A stretch of 54,640 nt of DNA from Minisyncoccia bacterium (GTDB lineage: Bacteria; Patescibacteriota; Minisyncoccia; Phycocordibacterales; JAACPR01), in assembly GCA_047639165.1 (NCBI GenBank), contig JBLINH010000002.1:1-54640 (forward strand). The letters are read 5' to 3'. Of this stretch, positions 7,173 through 54,640 are shown piece after piece. Under the pieces are notes generated by a model. The model ran no database searches. It was not told the DNA's origin and worked only from the letters and a program-made list of their open reading frames with translations. Each line of letters begins with the position of its first letter. Positions within the stretch are counted from its first letter, which is position 1. Position numbers and translations under genes: made by a program.

Positions 7173-8624
7173 ATGTCTAACGATGATATTTACTCAGAAC
7201 GGTTGAAAAAACTAGCATTACTAGAGGAGAAGGGTATTGACCCATATCCTGCACAGTCTTTTAGGACTCATGATAACGCTAGTTTTCTAGAATCTTTTAG
7301 TACTTTCTTTGATTCTCAAGAGAAAGTTGTTCTTGTTGGTAGGGTTATGTCACTTCGAGGACAAGGAGGAATTGTCTTCCTTGATATTTTTGATGGTACA
7401 GCTCGTACTCAAGCTCTTATAAAAAAAGATGATCTGGACGATGAAGTCTTTAACTTATTCGTAGATGCTGTTGGAGTTAGCGATTTCGTAGAAATAACAG
7501 GAACAGCTTTCACTACAAAGAGAGATGTTAATTCGTTACTTGCTACAGACTGGAGAATGCTTTCAAAGAGCTTAAGACAAGTTCCAGATGAATGGTTTGG
7601 TCTTAAAGATGACGATGAACGTTATAGAAAACGATATATAGATATTTTACTTAATCAAGAAACATCTGATCTTGTTAGGAAACGTTCAGTATTCTGGAAT
7701 GCAGTTCGTACTTTTATGTTGGAACGTGATTTTGTGGAGGTTGAAACTCCTGTTCTTGAAACAAAAACTGGAGGAGCAGAAGCTAGACCTTTTGTTACAC
7801 ACCACAACGCTCTTGATATGGATGTCTTTCTAAGGATCTCTACAGAGTTGTGGCATAAGAAACTTATCGTTGGAGGAATTCCAAAAGTGTTTGAAATTGG
7901 TAGGGTCTTTAGAAACGAAGGAATGTCTAGTGAACATGCACAGGACTACACACACTTTGAATTTTACGAAGCATACAAAGATGACCGTGATGGTGTTCCA
8001 ATGATTATTGATCTGTATCGTACTGTTGCTCAAAAAACATTTGGTACCCAACAATTTAAGATTGGAGAGTTTGATGTTGATCTATCTAAAGAATGGGGTA
8101 AGTATGATTTCAATAATCTAATGCAAGAGAACTACGGATTTGATCCTAGAGAAGTAGAGCTAGATGTGGTTAAAGAACAATTAGATAAGGAAGAAATTTC
8201 TTACGATTCTAGTCTTAATCTTGGGAGAGGAGTTGATCTACTTTGGAAAAAGATAAGAAAAACTATCGGTGGCCCAGCTATACTTACTGGAATCCCAGTT
8301 TACCTAGAACCTTTGGCTAAAAAGAACGGAGAAGATCCAAGAGTTGTTGATAGGTTCCAGATATTGTTAGGTGGGAGTGAAGTTGGAAAAGCTTTTAATG
8401 AGCTGAACAATCCAATAGACCAGCGTGAGCGTTTTGAAAAACAGCAAGCACTTCGTGATGCGGGAGATGATGAGGCACAGATGGCTGATTTTGAATATGT
8501 AGAGGCTATGGAATACGGAATGCCACCTATGTTTGGTTTCGGTGTGTCAGAGAGACTGTTTAGTTTCTTATCTAATAAGAGTATTAGAGAGACACAACTT
8601 TTCCCACTTATGCGACCGAAATAA
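7173..8624 (+). CDS. lysS: lysyl-tRNA synthetase, class II
   Basis: RVFRNEG, ELNNPIDQRERFEKQ and GMPPMFGFGVSERL...SIRETQLFPLMRP. Confidence 0.95.
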   Translation: MSNDDIYSERLKKLALLEEKGIDPYPAQSFRTHDNASFLESFSTFFDSQEKVVLVGRVMSLRGQGGIVFLDIFDGTARTQALIKKDDLDDEVFNLFVDAVGVSDFVEITGTAFTTKRDVNSLLATDWRMLSKSLRQVPDEWFGLKDDDERYRKRYIDILLNQETSDLVRKRSVFWNAVRTFMLERDFVEVETPVLETKTGGAEARPFVTHHNALDMDVFLRISTELWHKKLIVGGIPKVFEIGRVFRNEGMSSEHAQDYTHFEFYEAYKDDRDGVPMIIDLYRTVAQKTFGTQQFKIGEFDVDLSKEWGKYDFNNLMQENYGFDPREVELDVVKEQLDKEEISYDSSLNLGRGVDLLWKKIRKTIGGPAILTGIPVYLEPLAKKNGEDPRVVDRFQILLGGSEVGKAFNELNNPIDQRERFEKQQALRDAGDDEAQMADFEYVEAMEYGMPPMFGFGVSERLFSFLSNKSIRETQLFPLMRPK

Positions 8625-8672
8625 AATAAAGTTTGAATCGTCAACAAGTATTACAGTAATTTAAATATAAAA

Positions 8673-9068
8673 ATGAACACAAAAGAAATTAATCAGAAGA
8701 TAACTTTTGAGAATACAGATCCACACTCAGTGTATGAGTTGCTTATGGATTCTAAAAAACATTCAGACTTTACTGGTGAGCCAGCAGATATTAGCCGTGA
8801 GGTGGACGGTAAATGTAATGCTTACGGAGATTGGATAGAAGCTATAAATGTAGAACTCATTCCAGATCAAAAAATCGTACAAAAGTGGCGTGGTGGAGAT
8901 TGGTCTGATGATCATTATTCAGTCGCTACTTTTGAGTTTGAAAGTTTAGGAAATGATACTGTACTAACATTTACTCAAGCAGAAGTTCCTGAAGAAAACC
9001 ACGATGACATCTCTCAAGGATGGCATGATCACTATTGGGACAAGATGAAATCAGCAATCAAGGGTTAG
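8673..9068 (+). CDS. SRPBCC/AHSA1-like domain protein
   Basis: Size and pattern (YELLMDSKKHSDFTG...VQKWR...TFTQ) match the Aha1-like SRPBCC fold. Confidence 0.6.
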   Translation: MNTKEINQKITFENTDPHSVYELLMDSKKHSDFTGEPADISREVDGKCNAYGDWIEAINVELIPDQKIVQKWRGGDWSDDHYSVATFEFESLGNDTVLTFTQAEVPEENHDDISQGWHDHYWDKMKSAIKG

Positions 9069-9096
9069 TTCAAAATAGGATATATACTTAAACTAA

Positions 9097-9126
9097 CTTC
9101 AACATTCTACCGTGTTGAAGTTTTTT
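9097..9126 (+). terminator. rho-independent terminator
   Basis: Hairpin cttcaac...gttgaag followed by a T6 run. Confidence 0.7.
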
Positions 9127-9259
9127 GTATTTCATTGACATTCATAACTTTTTATATAGACTGCTAATTAATAACTATCCATTTAAAAGATTGGGTGGTC
9201 CCGATCTTTAAAAACACAAGTGGAAAATCTATAACTAAAAAAGTATAAAGGATAACATT

Positions 9260-34805: not shown

Positions 34806-34829
34806 ATATTTGTTATATAATACTATACG

Positions 34830-35144
34830 AACTACATTGGGTAATCGCTAAGTCTTTGACTTAGAGGAAAGTCCGGACACTCACAATTTAATTGTAGAAG
34901 GGTAGCGGGTAACGCCCGTCCAAAGTGATTTGCGAGGTGCGAGCAGAGACGTCTTAATTTGAAAAGATTAAGAATACCTTCGGGTATAGTCCTAGCGGTA
35001 ACGCTGGGGGTGAAACGGCAAAATCCTTACCTGAGTGCAAGGCCGTGTCCATTTATGGAAGTGCCGCTTGATCTTGCAGGCAACTGTAAAGACAGATAAA
35101 TGATTACTACCTTCGGGTACAGAATCCGGCTTACATATGTAGTT
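34830..35144 (+). ncRNA. rnpB: RNase P RNA, bacterial type, compact (about 315 nt)
   Basis: GAGGAAAGTCCGGAC at 34864-34878 and ACAGAATCCGGCTTA at 35119-35133. P1 pairs aactacat with atgtagtt. Confidence 0.9.
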
Positions 35145-35153
35145 TATTGAATG

Positions 35154-48427: not shown

Positions 48428-48482
48428 ACATGATTTATATATCACTTGAGTGGTGGTGGCAATAGTGGTAGTTTATATATAA

Positions 48483-48707
48483 ATGAGCACAAAGCAAAAG
48501 CAGGTTATTTGGAGGTGGTTAAATACCTTTCACAATAGGGGGTATTATAACCTTAAAATAGAAGGAGAGATGCATACCACTGATACTGTTGAGGAAGTCT
48601 CTGGAGCATTTGAAGCTATATTAAAAGCTTCACATTGCACTCAACAACACAGATATCAGGAGGCAAAAAGAACACTTAAATATTTTAACAAGAAAGCCAC
48701 CGCTTAA
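48483..48707 (+). CDS. hypothetical protein, 74 aa
   Basis: ATG start. The terminator hairpin (48693-48724) overlaps its stop. Confidence 0.45.
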   Translation: MSTKQKQVIWRWLNTFHNRGYYNLKIEGEMHTTDTVEEVSGAFEAILKASHCTQQHRYQEAKRTLKYFNKKATA

Positions 48708-48728
48708 TGCGGTGGCTTTATTTATATA

Positions 48729-48766
48729 AAAAAGCCCTGTGTGCTAAGTGCACACAGGGCTTTGGA
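48729..48766 (-). terminator. rho-independent terminator for a minus-strand transcript
   Basis: Stem gccctgtgtgc / gcacacagggc with T6 on the minus strand, lying just downstream of the 34-aa minus-strand micro-ORF. Confidence 0.7.
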
Positions 48767-48777
48767 AAAACTTACAA

Positions 48778-48882
48778 TTACTTTATAACAAAGTTATAAA
48801 TAGTATCCTCGAGTATTTCCTGTATCTCTAACACCTCTTTAGTGGGTTCTGGTGAATTATTATTAGTACTATCTAAGCTCAT
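48778..48882 (-). CDS. micro-ORF, 34 aa, acidic (MSLDSTNNNSPEPTKEVLEIQEILEDTIYNFVIK)
   Basis: Hand-translated, with its own downstream terminator. It is divergent from the 45-aa ORF. Confidence 0.3.
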   Translation of the reverse strand: MSLDSTNNNSPEPTKEVLEIQEILEDTIYNFVIK

Positions 48883-48942
48883 ATAAGTAGAGAGTAAAAA
48901 ACATCCACCTTCACCTTTATAATAATCTGGTATTATTACTAA

Positions 48943-49080
48943 ATGACTAAAGAGAAATATTGGAAAAAAAGAGGTGGTCTAGGCTTGTTACATGATCTTC
49001 CTGAAGAAGAAAAACGTATACTTAATTCACTCGTTCTATTTAAAACAATAAAAGAGTATGCGCTTTTAATCAGTATTTAA
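48943..49080 (+). CDS. micro-ORF, 45 aa, helix-turn-helix-like (MTKEKYWKKRGGLGLLHDLPEEEKRILNSLVLFKTIKEYALLISI)
   Basis: Hand-translated, lying 19 nt upstream of the 605-aa gene. LPEEEKRILNSLVLFKTIKEYA parallels LSEKDISILNSYTEFDTIDNFA in the N-terminus of that protein. Confidence 0.35.
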   Translation: MTKEKYWKKRGGLGLLHDLPEEEKRILNSLVLFKTIKEYALLISI

Positions 49081-49099
49081 TAAATGATAGAATATATCA

Positions 49100-50917
49100 A
49101 TGGAAAAATATGTAAAAAATCCTTTCTTGAACTCTTCAAATTTAAATTTATCAGAAAAGGACATAAGTATACTAAACTCCTATACTGAATTTGATACAAT
49201 TGATAATTTTGCCGAAAAATATTGCGAGGAGAAAGAAATAAGTAAATATCTCCATATACTTCTTTACTCAAAAAAATATACCCACCTGTTGATAGCAAAA
49301 ATTGCCAGATTATTGTTATCAAAAATGGTACCAGTAAATAAGCAGGTTGTAGATTCTGTAAAAAAGAAATTAGAGGAATTTAGAGATGAGGAATATTTAG
49401 TTTCAGATAAAGAAGTGGAGACAATTGTATATAAAGAAAAAATAGAGCAGGAAAAAGAAAAGCAAAAAATTGATTATATTTGTATTCCTACAGCAAATAG
49501 ACCTGATAGTCTGAAAGAAGTTTTAGAAAGTTTTTTAAGTTTCGAAAAAAGTAAAGATTATTCCTTTATAATAAGCGACGATAGTACTGATGAAAAAATA
49601 AAAAGTAAAACTATACAAATATTAAAATCTTTTAGAAATAGGTTTAATAAAATATATTATATTGATGAAAAAATAAGATCTGAAGCTGTAAAAAATATTC
49701 ATACAAAAATAAAAAGTAATAAGGAGATTATAGAATTCGGATTATTAAAACATAAAGATATTTTTTCAGTCGGTGCATCGAGAAATTTTCTAACTCTAGC
49801 AACTGCTGGTAAAAAGATTGTAGAAATAGACGATGATGTTATGTCTGGAGATATTAGATCTTTCGCAAAAAAAGATGATGTTCGTTGTACCTATCAGTAT
49901 CCTTTTCAACAAAAAAGATTCTCTAAACTTGAAGATATAAAAGGAGAAAAAATAAAAAAGGATTTTCTGGAAATTTATGAAAGGGTTCTTTCTGAAAAAC
50001 CAAGCTCCATTATAAAAAAAGATAATTTTGTACTTGAGTCATTAAATCAAAATAGTTTAAAAAGCTTACTCGAGGGGAGAGCAACGATAAAGCTTGCTAC
50101 TATGGGACATTTTGGTGATTCAGCAACAAACTCACAAGATCTATTTTTAAAAACTAATTACAAAGAAAGTGACCATATATCGAAACTAAGTGATAAAGAA
50201 TATCTAAGATTAAGAAATGCTGAATATTTCGTAAATCAATCAAAAACAGATCTTTTATACAGTGGAAGCTCTTTCGTTAGTCTAAATTTTGCTCTAGATA
50301 ATAGACAAATTTCTCCGTTTTTTTCTCCACTTGGAAGAGGGGATGAGATCACTTTTTTAAGTTCATTTGAGTTTTGTCATTTTGAGAATATTCAATATTA
50401 CCTCAAAGAGTGCATTCTACACAAAAGACCTGATGGAAAAAATCTGCTCAAAACTAAAATAGAAAAAAGTAAAGTATATCCACCCCTTCTTATCCATAGT
50501 CTAATAACAAATAGTTCAAGTGAGATATTTGAATATGACAGTACTGAAAAAGAAAGATACATTAAAATCGGACAATATCTTGAGGATATAGGAAAGATGA
50601 ACACTGATAACTTTAAGAAGAATTTATTACCTGCTTACAAAAAAATTATTTCAAGTTTATATTATTTTACTGATTTAGCATTTTTCTTAAATAAAGATTG
50701 TAATAAAAGTTATAAAAAAGATCTTAAAAAAGATTATAAAAATTTATCAAAATTTAATACAGATGAATTAAAAGTTGGTTGGCATGAAAAAAGTGAAAAC
50801 ATGGGCATTTATGAAATTAGAGACCTTATATTAAAATTCGGGAAGTTTTATAAAATTTGGCCACAAATGTGGGAACTTTCAAAAGAAGGGGAGATTAAAT
50901 TTATGAGGGAAATATAA
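49100..50917 (+). CDS. 605-aa Lys-rich protein with an N-terminal HTH-like segment, a GT-A (GT2-like) glycosyltransferase core and a large uncharacterised C-terminal region
   Basis: IDYICIPTANRPDSLKEVLESF, FIISDDSTDE and VEIDDDV (DxD) are GT-A hallmarks. The coding sequence is visibly more AT-rich than its neighbours. Confidence 0.6.
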   Translation: MEKYVKNPFLNSSNLNLSEKDISILNSYTEFDTIDNFAEKYCEEKEISKYLHILLYSKKYTHLLIAKIARLLLSKMVPVNKQVVDSVKKKLEEFRDEEYLVSDKEVETIVYKEKIEQEKEKQKIDYICIPTANRPDSLKEVLESFLSFEKSKDYSFIISDDSTDEKIKSKTIQILKSFRNRFNKIYYIDEKIRSEAVKNIHTKIKSNKEIIEFGLLKHKDIFSVGASRNFLTLATAGKKIVEIDDDVMSGDIRSFAKKDDVRCTYQYPFQQKRFSKLEDIKGEKIKKDFLEIYERVLSEKPSSIIKKDNFVLESLNQNSLKSLLEGRATIKLATMGHFGDSATNSQDLFLKTNYKESDHISKLSDKEYLRLRNAEYFVNQSKTDLLYSGSSFVSLNFALDNRQISPFFSPLGRGDEITFLSSFEFCHFENIQYYLKECILHKRPDGKNLLKTKIEKSKVYPPLLIHSLITNSSSEIFEYDSTEKERYIKIGQYLEDIGKMNTDNFKKNLLPAYKKIISSLYYFTDLAFFLNKDCNKSYKKDLKKDYKNLSKFNTDELKVGWHEKSENMGIYEIRDLILKFGKFYKIWPQMWELSKEGEIKFMREI

Positions 50918-51264: not shown

Positions 51265-51422
51265 ATTATTTAACCCCTCTCGAGCACTCACACTACCTCT
51301 CTCTTCTGTGAGCCTTCTCTAGCTCGGACTAAGCAAATTCATTGCAGGGTAAAGCTTTTTTAACTATCATAATGAAATTCAAAACGACCCATCTCGAGCA
51401 CTCGAACTAGTACTCTTCTTTT

Positions 51423-51453
51423 GTGACCCTAAAGTGTGGCTTTCAGAACTTGT
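51423..51453 (-). repeat. inter-cassette element copy C (most degenerate)
   Basis: The plus-strand sequence gtgaccctaaagtgtggctttcagaacttgt matches copy A at 25/31 positions. Confidence 0.6.
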
Positions 51454-51536
51454 ACCGTATAGGGAGTATATCAAATTGAGTGCTGAAACACTGTCAGATA
51501 TGCTCGCTTCAGTATAAATAAAATGCCATAAATCTA

Positions 51537-52226
51537 TTATTTTTGCTTCGTACAATAAGAGATTAGTCGTGAAAGTACATCTATACAGTCAATCACACTG
51601 CCTGTTAAATTGTGTGCTGCGTCTTTTATTTCGCACACAAGCCGTTCTCGGGATGAAGTAGCCCTGGCGATAATTTTATCCTGAGACTCTTTCGGCACTA
51701 CTGTGTCATTTGTGCCTCTGACAAATACGAATGTTCCGCCATAGGATTGCAGTGATGACAAAAGATATTCTTCGCTTGGCATCGTGACAAGTAGTGGTTT
51801 GGTGGTTGTCGGGCTTTTACCACAACCGCTTCCGATCATGATGACCGCTTTAGCTTTTTGTAATAATTCTGGCAATGCAAGCAAGAGCGTTCCGCCGAAT
51901 GAATTACCGACAATAGTGACTTTGTGTTCTTTGGAGATGAGCCCTTCTTGTAAGCAGGCATCAAAACCTTTTTGTATGTCTTCACATTCTTGTTCGAATG
52001 TTTTACCCACAAATGCTTCTAGGGTGTCGGACAGTAAGGCGCCATCTACATCTAATCGGGCAGTGTTGATACATATAAAGTTATACGAGCCCCTGCAGGA
52101 TGAAATGAGTGACATCTCCCACGAATCGGTCGTGCTAGGGTCATGCAATCCATAAATGCCTTTCAAAAATACGACAGTGTTGGTGACTGGACTTGATGAC
52201 TCATACCAAAAAACTTCTATTGGCAA
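51537..52226 (-). CDS. alpha/beta hydrolase (Ser-Asp-His type)
   Basis: Nucleophile elbow VGNSFGG, NDTVVP and AAHNL. The start is TTG, with no ATG nearby. Confidence 0.6.
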   Translation of the reverse strand: MPIEVFWYESSSPVTNTVVFLKGIYGLHDPSTTDSWEMSLISSCRGSYNFICINTARLDVDGALLSDTLEAFVGKTFEQECEDIQKGFDACLQEGLISKEHKVTIVGNSFGGTLLLALPELLQKAKAVIMIGSGCGKSPTTTKPLLVTMPSEEYLLSSLQSYGGTFVFVRGTNDTVVPKESQDKIIARATSSRERLVCEIKDAAHNLTGSVIDCIDVLSRLISYCTKQK

Positions 52227-52328
52227 CGAATGAAAAGACGATGTGAGAGAAAGCTTCTTTACCGCTATCTTCTTCGATACTCTCTTTTTTTTGCGGTATT
52301 TATTTTACTAAATTTTTCTAGACTCATG

Positions 52329-52445
52329 TATGGTATTTATACCATTTGGCTCATATTTTAACTAGTGAGCCTACAGGGTGGCTTTCCGAACTTTTATACT
52401 ACAAAGAGGGGATTAGGGTTTAGTATAGAGAAAATGAAAACACTG
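52329..52445 (-). repeat. inter-cassette element copy B
   Basis: The core gtgagcctacagggtggctttccgaactttt (52366-52396) matches copy A at 28/31 positions. Similarity extends on both sides (tggtat.ttata...ggct and gtttagtatagaga). Confidence 0.65.
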
Positions 52446-52447
52446 CT

Positions 52448-53224
52448 CTAAATCTCATTCATGTCGGTGTCAAAACGAATAGCATATGCAAGTTTATGAC
52501 CAACAAAATTTTGCATAGAATATTTTTTGGAATATTTATCAATATTTTCACTCATTTTTAATACATCTTCTTTATTAAAGTATTTCCACTCACGGTTTTG
52601 TAATCCTATCGAAAGCATGTTTGAGTCATCAGGGGTGGCCTTTATGGCTTCTTCAAAGCTACCGTGTGTTTCTATTTCCTGAGGAAGATTACGACTATAA
52701 CGAAACAAGGCGGAATATTCAGCCAGCAGCTCTTTAATTGCGGCTAGTTCGCTAGAGTATTTTTCTTTAAAACTTTCAAGCCTTGGCTCTTTGTCTTCCC
52801 TTCTTTGTTTTAGTTCTTCATCGTATGATCTGCTATAAGCTGTAAGTGTAAACAGACTTAAAAACAAATCTTTGTCCTGTTCATCAACGATATCTCTTTC
52901 AACTAAATCTTTAAAAATGAAGTTTCTGAGCACACCTCCTATTCTAAAAGCTGAATCGTAACATCTCGCATCAATCAATTGCTTTGGAAATTCATGACCT
53001 CTTTCTTGCATAAAACTTGAGGCTATTGGTTTTCTGTGGATTATACAGTCGCCGTACAAAGAATAGACCTCATCAATATTTTCTAAATGTCTTTCATCCA
53101 CACTCTCTACTTCTCCATCCTTGATAGTAATATCACTTATTAATTTATCTTGTTCTTGCGATAGTATTTCTCCCTCAGCTTCCACTAAATGCTCCCAAAA
53201 ATTATCATCTAAAACATTTTCCAC
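52448..53224 (-). CDS. hypothetical protein, 258 aa
   Basis: Long ORF with a GTG start. No recognisable domain. Confidence 0.5.
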   Translation of the reverse strand: MENVLDDNFWEHLVEAEGEILSQEQDKLISDITIKDGEVESVDERHLENIDEVYSLYGDCIIHRKPIASSFMQERGHEFPKQLIDARCYDSAFRIGGVLRNFIFKDLVERDIVDEQDKDLFLSLFTLTAYSRSYDEELKQRREDKEPRLESFKEKYSSELAAIKELLAEYSALFRYSRNLPQEIETHGSFEEAIKATPDDSNMLSIGLQNREWKYFNKEDVLKMSENIDKYSKKYSMQNFVGHKLAYAIRFDTDMNEI

Positions 53225-53275
53225 ATCTTTTTCAATAAGGCTATTATATACACGCTCAGAAATAGACCTTAAATA

Positions 53276-53473
53276 TTATTTTTGAAAATCATAAATATCG
53301 CCCTGCATTTCTTCTAGCGCAACAAAACCTTTTTCAATTATCTGTTCTTTTAGTCCAGGTATAGCTTCTTCCTCAACCCCTTCTATAATTTCTGGAGTAG
53401 AAGAATCTAGTTCATTTTCGTCTTTATTCTCCTTCGAATTAGCACACATTGCTTCATTTGGTATTTTTTCCAT
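53276..53473 (-). CDS. small acidic protein, 65 aa (MEKIPNEAMCANSKENKDENELDSSTPEIIEGVEEEAIPGLKEQIIEKGFVALEEMQGDIYDFQK)
   Basis: An internal ATG was chosen because the track's longer N-terminus (to 53599) is a translation of the repeat elements. Confidence 0.45.
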   Translation of the reverse strand: MEKIPNEAMCANSKENKDENELDSSTPEIIEGVEEEAIPGLKEQIIEKGFVALEEMQGDIYDFQK

Positions 53474-53494
53474 ATCTATATATCTTATATAAAG

Positions 53495-53530
53495 TTCACA
53501 ACATTCACAACATTCACAAGGTTCACGAAT
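53495..53530. repeat. four tandem 9-mers TTCACAACA / TTCACAACA / TTCACAAGG / TTCACGAAT
   Basis: Read directly. The array abuts the 68-bp direct repeat, and a further TTCACAATG lies at 53681-53689. Confidence 0.8.
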
Positions 53531-53531
53531 A

Positions 53532-53599
53532 GTTCGGAACAAGTTTAGTGGTATGTTTTTATATGGCTTAAATAAAGGCTTAAAAATTTGTGACCCCAC
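53532..53599 (-). repeat. 68-bp direct repeat, distal copy
   Basis: Identical at 67 of 68 positions to 54456..54523. Its last 9 nt (minus sense GTGGGGTCA) equal the tRNA-Glu 3' end. Confidence 0.9.
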
Positions 53600-53668
53600 G
53601 GGGTGGCTTTCCGAACTTTTGGGGTATGGGAAGAGTGTGAGTTTTAGTATGAGAGAGTTGAATGGGGT
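53590..53668 (-). repeat. inter-cassette element copy A
   Basis: Minus sense: ACCCCATTCAACTCTCTCATACTAAAACTC...AAAAGTTCGGAAAGCCACCCCGTGGGGTCAC. Its ends are complementary (ACCCCA/TGGGGT). Confidence 0.7.
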
Positions 53669-53713
53669 AGTTATATAATGTTCACAATGTTAACGTTTAG
53701 TATAAAAGAAAAG

Positions 53714-53750
53714 AACGCCGTACCCGAAGGTCGTGCGTTCTGTTTGAAAG
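53714..53750 (-). terminator. terminator of the 151-aa gene
   Basis: Minus strand: agaacgc-acgaccttcgggtacg-gcgttct followed by TTTTCTTTT. Confidence 0.65.
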
Positions 53751-53798
53751 TTTTAAGAGGATAGAACTCTTTGGTTACTTCACCGAGCAGATGTACTG

Positions 53799-54254
53799 CT
53801 ATTTAAAAAGTTCATGTTCATTCAAGAACTCCTCAGTCGTACTCTCTGTGGTGTAAACCTTAACAGAGTTAGTAAAGATGTCAGGGCTGATTTCTCCTCC
53901 ACTAACACCAACGAGAGAGAATGCTAGAACTCTTTGGTCGAAACCAAAGTTGGTCCATGCTATGTACTCTTTTCCATTCAGTCTCACCACAGACTCCTTT
54001 CCTAATTGGAAGTCGCTAATAACTTCCACGTTGGTTACTGGTGTGACAGGTTCTTCTGAAGGTCTTATGTAAGAGACCCCCCCATTAGGCGCAAATGGTA
54101 CGTGCCACATGTCGCCCTTTATCTGTGCTGGTCTGTGCGTCCCACTTACAGGACAGCGTTCATGAGTCAGAAAGGGGAAATCTTTCCATAAGTCAGATTC
54201 TCCATTAAAACCAACGAGAGAGAAATGTGTGAGTGTAATACGTTTTGTTATCAT
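53799..54254 (-). CDS. hypothetical protein, 151 aa, with an internal FSLVG(F/V)xGxE repeat
   Basis: ATG start with its own promoter and terminator. No recognisable domain. Confidence 0.55.
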   Translation of the reverse strand: MITKRITLTHFSLVGFNGESDLWKDFPFLTHERCPVSGTHRPAQIKGDMWHVPFAPNGGVSYIRPSEEPVTPVTNVEVISDFQLGKESVVRLNGKEYIAWTNFGFDQRVLAFSLVGVSGGEISPDIFTNSVKVYTTESTTEEFLNEHELFK

Positions 54255-54384
54255 GGCGGTAAATTGAGTATGGTTTGAAGGACAATAATCGGTTTAGCTG
54301 ATGCTAAGTTATCAATTACAATCTTTCTTCCAAACTCAATTAACCATTTCTATCCTTTACAAAGAACCTTACTTGACTATCTTA

Positions 54385-54413
54385 AGTATATCATGTTTAG
54401 AGTGTTCTGTCAA
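54385..54413 (-). promoter_or_regulatory. sigma70-type promoter TTGACA-17 nt-TATACT
   Basis: On the minus strand the -35 box TTGACA is at 54413-54408 and the -10 box TATACT at 54390-54385, about 130 nt upstream of the 151-aa gene. Confidence 0.55.
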
Positions 54414-54455
54414 TACCACGTTATGGTTCAATATCTTTGTAATACTTAAGTAAAG

Positions 54456-54523
54456 GTTCGGAACAAGTTTAGGGGTATGTTTTTATATGGCTTAAATAAA
54501 GGCTTAAAAATTTGTGACCCCAC
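54456..54523 (-). repeat. 68-bp direct repeat, tRNA-proximal copy
   Basis: It overlaps the last 9 nt of tRNA-Glu and the 59 nt downstream of it. Confidence 0.9.
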
Positions 54524-54586
54524 AGAGAATCGAACTCTGATTTCAGCCTTGAAAAGGCCGTGTCCTAACCGTTAGACGATGGGGCC
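54515..54586 (-). tRNA. tRNA-Glu (anticodon UUC)
   Basis: Hand-folded: GGCCCCA-TC-GTCT-AACGGTTA-GGAC-A-CGGCC-TTTTCAA-GGCTG-AAAT-CAGAG-TTCGATT-CTCTG-TGGGGTC-A. Confidence 0.9.
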
Positions 54587-54640
54587 AAGACTGGCTTGGC
54601 AGTACGCCAAAATATACCAGTTTTTTGGAAAAAAATCTAG

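Follow-up and report, generated by a model that had tools for sequence, protein, structure and literature searches.

The DNA analyzed here, which we call the window, spans an entire contig (54,640 bp; G+C content, ∼36%), and its host is a Paceibacteria-like member of the candidate phyla radiation (CPR/Patescibacteria). Bacteria of this group have tiny genomes, and few mobile elements have been described in them. At one end of the window, two direct repeats of 68 nt lie beside an intact gene for tRNA-Glu(UUC) and enclose a unit with a single gene of 151 amino acids (aa). How did such a pair arise? Our analysis indicates that the repeats are probably attachment-site (att) junctions, in which the end of the tRNA-Glu gene meets a leftover piece of a serine-integrase gene. 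The features of the unit are listed below from the tRNA gene inward; O stands for the core of an att site, and P and P' stand for its arms.

54514..54586, minus strand: intact tRNA-Glu(UUC) gene (ARAGORN; Rfam 54515-54586, 60.7 bits)
54456..54523: tRNA-proximal repeat copy, probably of attL type; core O GTGGGGTCAC at 54514-54523, P' arm at 54456-54513
54413-54385, minus strand: promoter-like site TTGACA-17-TATACT with TG before the -10 box (extended); 11/12 sigma-70-type match
53799..54254, minus strand: cargo gene, 151 aa
53703..53741, minus strand: intrinsic terminator of the cargo gene; hairpin 53741-53712, then a U-tract
53600..53678, plus strand: integrase C-terminal tail A (P arm), reading ..TGWLSELLGYGKSVSFSMRELNGVVI up to its stop, with the invariant block GTGGCTTTCCGAAC; ∼80 nt, last 26 residues
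53532..53599: distal repeat copy; core O at 53590-53599 and a 58-nt P' relic

The repeat is observed directly. A repeat search returned two copies, 53532-53599 and 54456-54523, that start 924 bp apart and are identical at 67 of 68 positions, the sole difference being T/G at repeat position 18; chance alone would be far from yielding a 67/68 match within 1 kb. Core O is the last 10 nt of tRNA-Glu, and the remainder of each copy is the 58-nt P' arm. A first-pass annotation made from the letters alone had described the same pair, with the same T/G difference and with the proximal copy lying over the end of tRNA-Glu, and both the repeat search and the tRNA predictions bear this out (the last 9 to 10 nt of the gene plus 58 to 59 nt downstream). 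An intact tRNA gene thus stands at one boundary and a direct repeat of the tRNA 3' end stands at the other, as in islands that target tRNA genes. The T-arm and 3' acceptor strand of tRNA-Glu are the chromosomal (B) side of the attachment site.

Between the copies, the order on the tRNA-sense strand is P' arm, promoter, 151-aa gene, terminator, and tail A. The promoter-like site is the only one to reach an 11/12 match in the 3.6-kb region scanned. The terminator, a 28-nt GC-rich hairpin followed by UUUUCUUUU, was not picked up by a pattern scan and was found by folding (z = -3.6 over a 106-nt stretch). The earlier description of the 924-bp unit as one gene with its own promoter and its own terminator therefore stands.

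The conserved block and the serine recombinase reading frame

On the tRNA-sense strand, the sequence before copy A of the repeat (the distal copy) reads AAAAGTTCGGAAAGCCACCCC. The window has three occurrences of the 18-mer AAGTTCGGAAAGCCACCC, two of them at 53601-53618 and 52376-52393 and a third, with two mismatches, at 51434-51451; 0.01 occurrences would be expected by chance. Exact 14- to 16-mers of this block, AAGTTCGGAAAGCCAC(CC), recur in four distant Paceibacteria loci (L002, L016, L020, and L022), which had been fetched solely as loci of distant TsaD homologues (43 to 53% identity), and in further Paceibacteria metagenome-assembled genomes (MAGs). Decay of a local repeat, considered as an origin of the block, was abandoned once these exact matches appeared in other loci. 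A scan of metagenome contigs for AAGTTCGGAAAGCCAC-N7-GGTCA yielded 42 contigs, and the tail block was found in total 60 times in 53 loci. Six 16-mer matches in viral contigs lacked the extended motif and were set aside as chance.

The opposite strand of the block encodes W-L-S-E-L, and its frame stays open for ∼20 more codons, with the conserved tail pattern (G/A)WLSEL-x3-R-x2-I-x2-S-I-x-E-L. This frame forms the 3' end of long open reading frames (ORFs) that extend 578 (L223), 567 (L149), and 439 (L240) residues upstream of the conserved W; the ORF that ends in the block is at least 400 aa long and runs to the contig edge in L232 and L237. Intact genes of this kind on metagenome contigs encode large serine recombinases (LSRs) of ∼580 to 590 aa that end in the tail ..CDPTGWLSEL.. 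and share 50 to 72% identity among one another. By Pfam, the proteins of L223 and L020 carry Resolvase, Recombinase, and Zn_ribbon_recom domains and lack the Phage_integrase domain that tyrosine recombinase chemistry would call for. A PDB sequence search with the LSR returned no match.

It is likewise observed directly that the block is coding sequence and homologous to LSR C termini. Among 50 distinct tail copies, a stop occurs within the first 14 codons in 1 copy in the tail frame, compared to 29 copies in each other frame, and positional entropy decreases from codon position 3 to position 1 to position 2. Just before the tail, the codons (TGT) GAC CCC specify (C)DP; they are GGGGTCAC(A), the 3' end of tRNA-Glu, in reverse complement, which places the attachment core inside the integrase ORF. 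Intact LSR ORFs read through this core into the tail. Contigs with an intact attP (L223, L149, L240, L232, L237, and L212), when checked for circularity, had no terminal overlaps.

When five intact LSRs were compared to the window by tblastn, matches were obtained at 53523-53672 (E = 8e-8 to 2e-6), 52355-52432, and 51395-51505, and nowhere else. Residues 527 to 586 of the L149 protein align to 53523-53660 and so span both the 58-nt arm and the tail; the 58 nt downstream of the tRNA gene are thus decayed int coding sequence. In the open frame at 53493-53678 (plus strand; SSQHSQHSQGSRIVRNKFSGMFLYGLNKGLKICDPTGWLSELLGYGKSVSFSMRELNGVVI, then a stop), tail A and the distal copy are contiguous in an attP-like P-O-P' arrangement; judged from its sequence, this frame is an integrase 3' pseudogene fragment. 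The window retains just the last ∼50 codons of an LSR gene.

Insertions at tRNA-Glu in relatives and the array in the window

The link to tRNA-Glu can also be seen directly. In 14 loci, a tRNA-Glu gene (UUC or CUC) lies upstream of the tail on the same strand, 0.1 to 8 kb off. In L020, tRNA-Glu is followed by an LSR of 574 aa on the opposite strand, the last ∼21 codons of which are antisense tRNA. A Prim-Pol/PriCT gene and further genes come next, then the tail, and after it the tRNA 3' end and the int 3' region are repeated exactly over 80 nt. A sister species (L022) has the same element with the same tail end in a different flank. An apparently autonomous minimal element of ∼2.6 kb (L242, 2319-5060, oriented) consists of tRNA-Glu, a 550-aa LSR, a conserved 189-aa gene, and the tail. 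In both L020 and L242, the integrated int copy ends in antisense tRNA and the tail lies at the far end; these two relatives have an integrase gene inside the element, and the window unit has none. The 189-aa gene of L242 is also present in L016 and has a weak likeness in L020 (30% over 89 aa).

L113 has a tRNA-Glu(CUC), a P' arm homologous to that of the window, one 194-aa gene, and a tail. Its repeat is only GGGTCAC, so that attP and attB are identical over just 7 nt. L113 and L228 both have the short P' type of the window with different cargo, and the repeat in L002 is 19 nt long. A transposon-like target-site duplication of 19 to 80 nt, considered as the source of the variable repeat length, became needless once the flank was recognized as int coding sequence.

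Can the position of the break be located? One direct comparison of an empty and an occupied site was available. A gene located directly after tRNA-Glu in L012 comes after the tail in L016, and homology between the two loci starts at GGTCAC, with an estimated ∼85% identity onward and unrelated sequence before it (81% mean column identity over the whole alignment). At the family level, these loci represent an empty site (attB) and an occupied site (attR). In addition, L213 and L216 are 99.5% identical over 843 nt up to the core GGGGTCAAAA (oriented ∼862 and 843) and unrelated after it, which we read as a natural junction polymorphism exactly at the core. An indel near tRNA-Glu between L231 and L250 was too complex and was not used as evidence.

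The block of the window marks two more junctions, B and C, farther from the tRNA gene. These junctions and the genes between them are as follows.

52322..52423, plus strand: junction B, older integrase tail + core + P' relic, reading ..YLYHLAHILTSEPTGWLSELLYYKEGIRV up to its stop; invariant block at 52376-52393
51353..51517, plus strand: junction C, oldest recognizable integrase tail, reading ..CDPKVWLSELVPYREYIKLSAETLSDMLASV up to its stop; block at 51434-51451, 2 mismatches
52448..53474, minus strand: cargo gene 2, made up of two ORFs (107 aa, 258 aa) that share a frame and are split by an in-frame TAA at 53276-53278; no family match
51537..52226, minus strand: cargo gene 3, alpha/beta-hydrolase fold, 229 aa
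51037..51291, minus strand: 84-aa ORF adjoining junction C; sub-threshold AbiV/HEPN match
53491..53518, minus strand: TGTGAAYNTT boxes, three in tandem just upstream of gene 2 and a fourth at 53677-53686

On the tRNA-sense strand, tail A is followed by the core, P' (58 nt), the TGTGAAY boxes, gene 2, tail B, a core, and a diverged P' relic (..YLYHLAHILTSEPTGW..); beyond junction B come the alpha/beta-hydrolase gene, tail C, a core, and the AbiV-like 84-aa fragment. Junctions B and C share with junction A the tRNA 3' end and the adjacent integrase-tail block. The first-pass annotation had called copies B and C degraded; they are indeed more diverged, but they are older junctions of the same type rather than decayed 68-mers as such. 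Their cores, TAGGCTCAC and TAGGGTCAC, are weaker copies of the tRNA 3' end. The TAGGGTCAC-type cores (51434-51460 and 52376-52402) correspond to the tRNA-Glu acceptor variant of other Paceibacteria and not to the TGGGGTCAC of the window, which hints that the modules at these junctions may have arrived from different hosts. We consider it likely that junctions A, B, and C mark a tandem array of three or more modules, each with a single gene and no integrase, and that the 924-bp unit is the newest of them. Other arrays, with a spacing of 0.67 to 1.9 kb, are present on five further contigs.

Origin of the junctions

The junctions were probably left by LSR-encoding integrative elements that insert at the tRNA-Glu 3' end in Paceibacteria-like CPR bacteria. 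That an LSR made the junctions and that the modules arrived one by one at the tRNA gene, we infer as follows. An LSR element would integrate at the tRNA-Glu 3' end by means of an attP inside the integrase reading frame. Integration would join most of the int gene to the tRNA as attL, with the frame now ending in antisense tRNA, and the 26-codon tail (GWLSEL...) would stay at the far end of the element as attR; since attP is intragenic, such a tail would mark the distal end after each integration. Any further events at this tRNA gene would push older modules inward, and int and other backbone genes would be lost over time, leaving the captured single genes. The resulting locus would most probably be a tRNA-linked island built by serine recombinases that carry attP in their own gene, with the 68-bp pair as its freshest junction. 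Against the much greater divergence of B and C, the 67/68 identity of the repeat suggests that the last event was recent, as the first-pass annotation had reasonably proposed. Its proposal of an att-like pair by the tRNA gene that brackets a gene unit gains comparative backing from many Paceibacteria loci, but the integrase relics, the split-off tail, and the lack of an integrase in the window had all escaped it.

The near-identity of the two O-P' copies suggests that one and the same P' arm was present in the incoming DNA and at the resident site. The second O-P' copy might have been gained when a small attP-bearing circle entered an attL-type target (tandem integration), by re-integration beside the scar of the same element, as suggested by the exact 80-nt repeat of L020, or by homologous recombination.

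Several observations weigh against this account. The 54.6-kb contig contains no integrase of the LSR family, only the three C-terminal relics matched by the five LSRs in tblastn. A deletion or circle junction was not seen: the only two assemblies of the locus are identical, and the exact repeat, with which sister genomes and deletion variants were sought, had 0 matches in GTDB representatives and 0 matches in metagenome contigs of the Joint Genome Institute (JGI). Excision or circularization of the 924-bp module by recombination between the two copies is plausible. Around a 2-bp crossover, LSR att sites would be expected to have dyad-symmetric half-sites, besides being short and of minimal attP/attB identity. 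Dyad symmetry at the proposed crossover is weak; in a scan of attP, it was centered between GGTCAC and the following A in the L223/L232/L240 lineage and was not found in other lineages. The P' relic ranges from 0 to 80 nt across other loci, a spread more easily reconciled with full elements that decayed than with a mini-element that is defined and mobile. The P' arms are 57/58 identical, yet tails A and B are only ∼65 to 70% alike outside the 20-nt core (by eye), so that simple successive integration of unrelated elements is no explanation. Finally, canonical LSRs recombine attP with attB and not with attL, so tandem insertion would need a tolerant B' half-site.

Could the 924-bp unit instead be an active non-autonomous mini-element that has a complete attP and is moved in trans by an LSR encoded elsewhere, the array being a serine-recombinase analogue of a cassette array? 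The contiguous P-O-P' junction with its open int-like frame, the 67/68 identity of the repeat, the L213/L216 polymorphism exactly at the core, and the fact that small single-gene modules and arrays are common all speak for this possibility. So does the P' arm, which ends at GTTCCGAAY in the window (twice), in L113, and in L228 with different cargo in each; such a common end favors a defined mini-element. The same boundary matches a second (F)SEL codon block in the intact LSR gene. Many other modules, however, have no P' arm at all and hence could not carry attP, which favors simple decay. The window provides no helper LSR, neither the two identical assemblies nor the JGI contig search revealed a circular or empty-site product, and the cargo has its own promoter, so that a position in an array would have no obvious role. 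We regard a mini-element of this kind as unlikely. More speculative still is the idea that the swap of the last ∼26 residues acts as a built-in switch for directionality or "capture" and that short attP-bearing modules are cassettes, moved in trans, that build arrays of variable genes at tRNA-Glu in these minimal genomes.

The repeat might also have arisen by local duplication or by a Campbell-type insertion through homologous recombination over the 68 bp of homology, with the nearness of the tRNA gene being incidental. Repeat length does vary (19 nt in L002, 68 nt in the window, and 80 nt in L020), as if shared homology set it, and the near-identity of the two P' arms is not shared by the tails. 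We find this improbable, given that the left edge of the repeat always lies in the 3' acceptor strand of tRNA-Glu and always abuts the conserved integrase tail, that the L113 repeat is reduced to GGGTCAC, that the empty/occupied comparison puts the break at GGTCAC, and that LSR genes are located at the tRNA side of full elements. There is very little chance that a small RNA gene, or else a DNA or RNA element with a regulatory role, accounts for the block beside A, B, and C. A TAnACT box ∼37 nt upstream of the block and hairpins with compensatory changes in some lineages (GCAAT/ATTGC, TACGG/CCGTA, and AGCCG/CGGCT) would suit such an element, but the box corresponds to conserved S-(I/V) codons of the tail, the block has no Rfam match, and it is in frame with intact LSR ORFs and terminates them, with a stop-codon and codon-position signature and with significant tblastn matches to LSR C termini. 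A small RNA, leader, promoter, or tRNA-like element was rejected on the grounds of Rfam and the coding reading frame, an integron attC or Xer/dif-like site was rejected because there is no palindromic core pair and no attC-type R''/R' motif, and an ECF-sigma or sigma-54 promoter was rejected because its spacing does not fit (inspection only). An assembly artefact, that is, a chimeric join or a false duplication at the contig end, has a negligible probability in our estimate. The repeat does lie within ∼1.1 kb of the contig end, and the contigs of both samples end at the identical base, hinting at an assembly problem just upstream of the tRNA. However, a second assembly, from another JGI sample (L081, 6844 bp), has both repeat copies and differs from the window by one mismatch in 6.8 kb, located outside the repeat; the same structure in two samples argues against an artefact, as do the one-base difference between the copies and the same architecture in the unrelated assemblies L020 and L002.

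Cargo, known systems, and wider setting

The protein encoded by the 151-aa gene had no Pfam match and no PADLOC match. Its homologues are few: one close homologue among 5.8 billion proteins and ∼10 relatives among 1.8 billion cluster representatives. An AlphaFold model from a 10-sequence alignment (pLDDT 82, pTM 0.77) predicts an all-beta protein, with no significant fold match in PDB or BFVD; a model from two sequences was too poor and was discarded. In L082 (6475-6960), L251 (5001-5420), and L253 (1598-2017), homologues lie divergent beside a TrmB-family regulator of 262 to 267 aa, and the window copy is without such a neighbor. The in-frame TAA of gene 2 is also present in the second sample (L081), and gene 2 is either a fresh pseudogene or two genes. 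The 84-aa ORF next to junction C is possibly a fragment of another cargo gene. All four TGTGAAYNTT matches of the window gather around junction A, and in L225, L226, L229, L230, and L243, the att core is directly followed by similar GTGAAC(A/G)TTGTGAA repeats; the boxes may be a shared cargo promoter or operator.

The closest likeness is to integrases that carry attP within their own gene. In myxophage Mx8, attP lies inside int, and integration gives int a new 3' end (IntP; PMC6070905; see also PMC4383910). The "suicidal" archaeal integrases of the SSV type also have attP inside the gene, which is split on integration, one fragment ending up at the far end of the element; according to a 2021 review, recombinases that disrupt the gene encoding them are known from archaea only (PMC8371274). 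As in these systems, the att core of the CPR elements lies within the int ORF and overlaps the match to the tRNA gene, and integration alters or splits int. Both precedents, however, are tyrosine recombinases, whereas the enzyme here is an LSR. In contrast to the SSV type, the elements reside in CPR bacteria, and what is removed, and left at attR, is no more than a short C-terminal tail (∼26 codons). An intragenic attP is unusual for an LSR, and the precedents that we found are the two just named. Searches of a literature collection returned no description of such LSR elements in CPR bacteria.

Prochlorococcus tycheposons integrate next to tRNA genes, push older elements inward, and leave partial tRNA separators and degenerated integrases or remnants; a minority use LSRs (bioRxiv 10.1101/2020.12.28.424599). 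The window has the same tRNA-linked tandem layout, but its modules are single genes of ∼0.9 to 1.1 kb in a different phylum, the target is tRNA-Glu, and the separators are junctions of integrase tail and core instead of long partial tRNAs. The idea that the window is a Prochlorococcus-type island was dropped, as the contig belongs to a Paceibacteria-like CPR bacterium. The TsaD protein of the window is at most 58% identical to that of any GTDB species representative.

Cis-mobilizable elements (CIMEs) are att-flanked, integrase-less derivatives of integrative elements; they occur in tandem with related elements and are in principle mobilizable by a related integrase. In Streptococcus thermophilus, work on ICESt3 and CIMEs reportedly showed such mobilization, with the CIMEs deriving from integrative and conjugative elements (ICEs) that use tyrosine recombinases. 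The modules of the window resemble CIMEs in that att sites bound them, a recombination module is missing, and they stand in tandem. Integron cassettes also form arrays of single-gene units in one orientation with a conserved separator that resembles a recombination site. Unlike an integron, the array here has no IntI, attI, or attC (no RYYYAAC...GTTRRRY palindrome), its separators are relics of LSR coding sequence, and its cargo has its own promoter and terminator. A Pfam scan of 8 ORFs at 47.3 to 54.3 kb revealed no tyrosine recombinase near the array; the rest of the contig was not part of that scan, and the tblastn queries were LSRs only.

These data identify a recurrent and precisely mappable insertion hotspot at tRNA-Glu, in the window and its relatives, together with the family of elements by which it is supplied. 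As a molecular fossil, the 26-codon tail left by the split allows past integrations to be counted and captured genes to be found in metagenomes, and LSRs with a defined 10-nt core at a tRNA end and compact sites are of interest as genome-engineering enzymes.

Some further observations concern the surroundings. The contigs of both samples end at window position 54640 (L081 position 1), 54 nt upstream of tRNA-Glu, which suggests a repeat or a strain-variable region there. In relatives, tRNA-Ser(CGA) usually adjoins tRNA-Glu, and tRNA-Val(GAC) lies immediately upstream of TsaD (e.g., in L012, L013, L016, L017, L019, and L020). The window has no tRNA-Val(GAC) upstream of TsaD, with just a 74-aa ORF at 48446-49100, and its G+C content is lowest at 48 to 50 kb (0.31). 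A bacterial class A RNase P RNA at 34829-35149 (126.8 bits) is shorter than the 367-position model, and short RNase P RNAs are common in CPR genomes. In the Adlerbacteria MAG that contains L020, a 272-aa ORF (8434-9252) lies between tRNA-Glu and tRNA-Ser and, judged by eye, looks like a homing-endonuclease-type protein.

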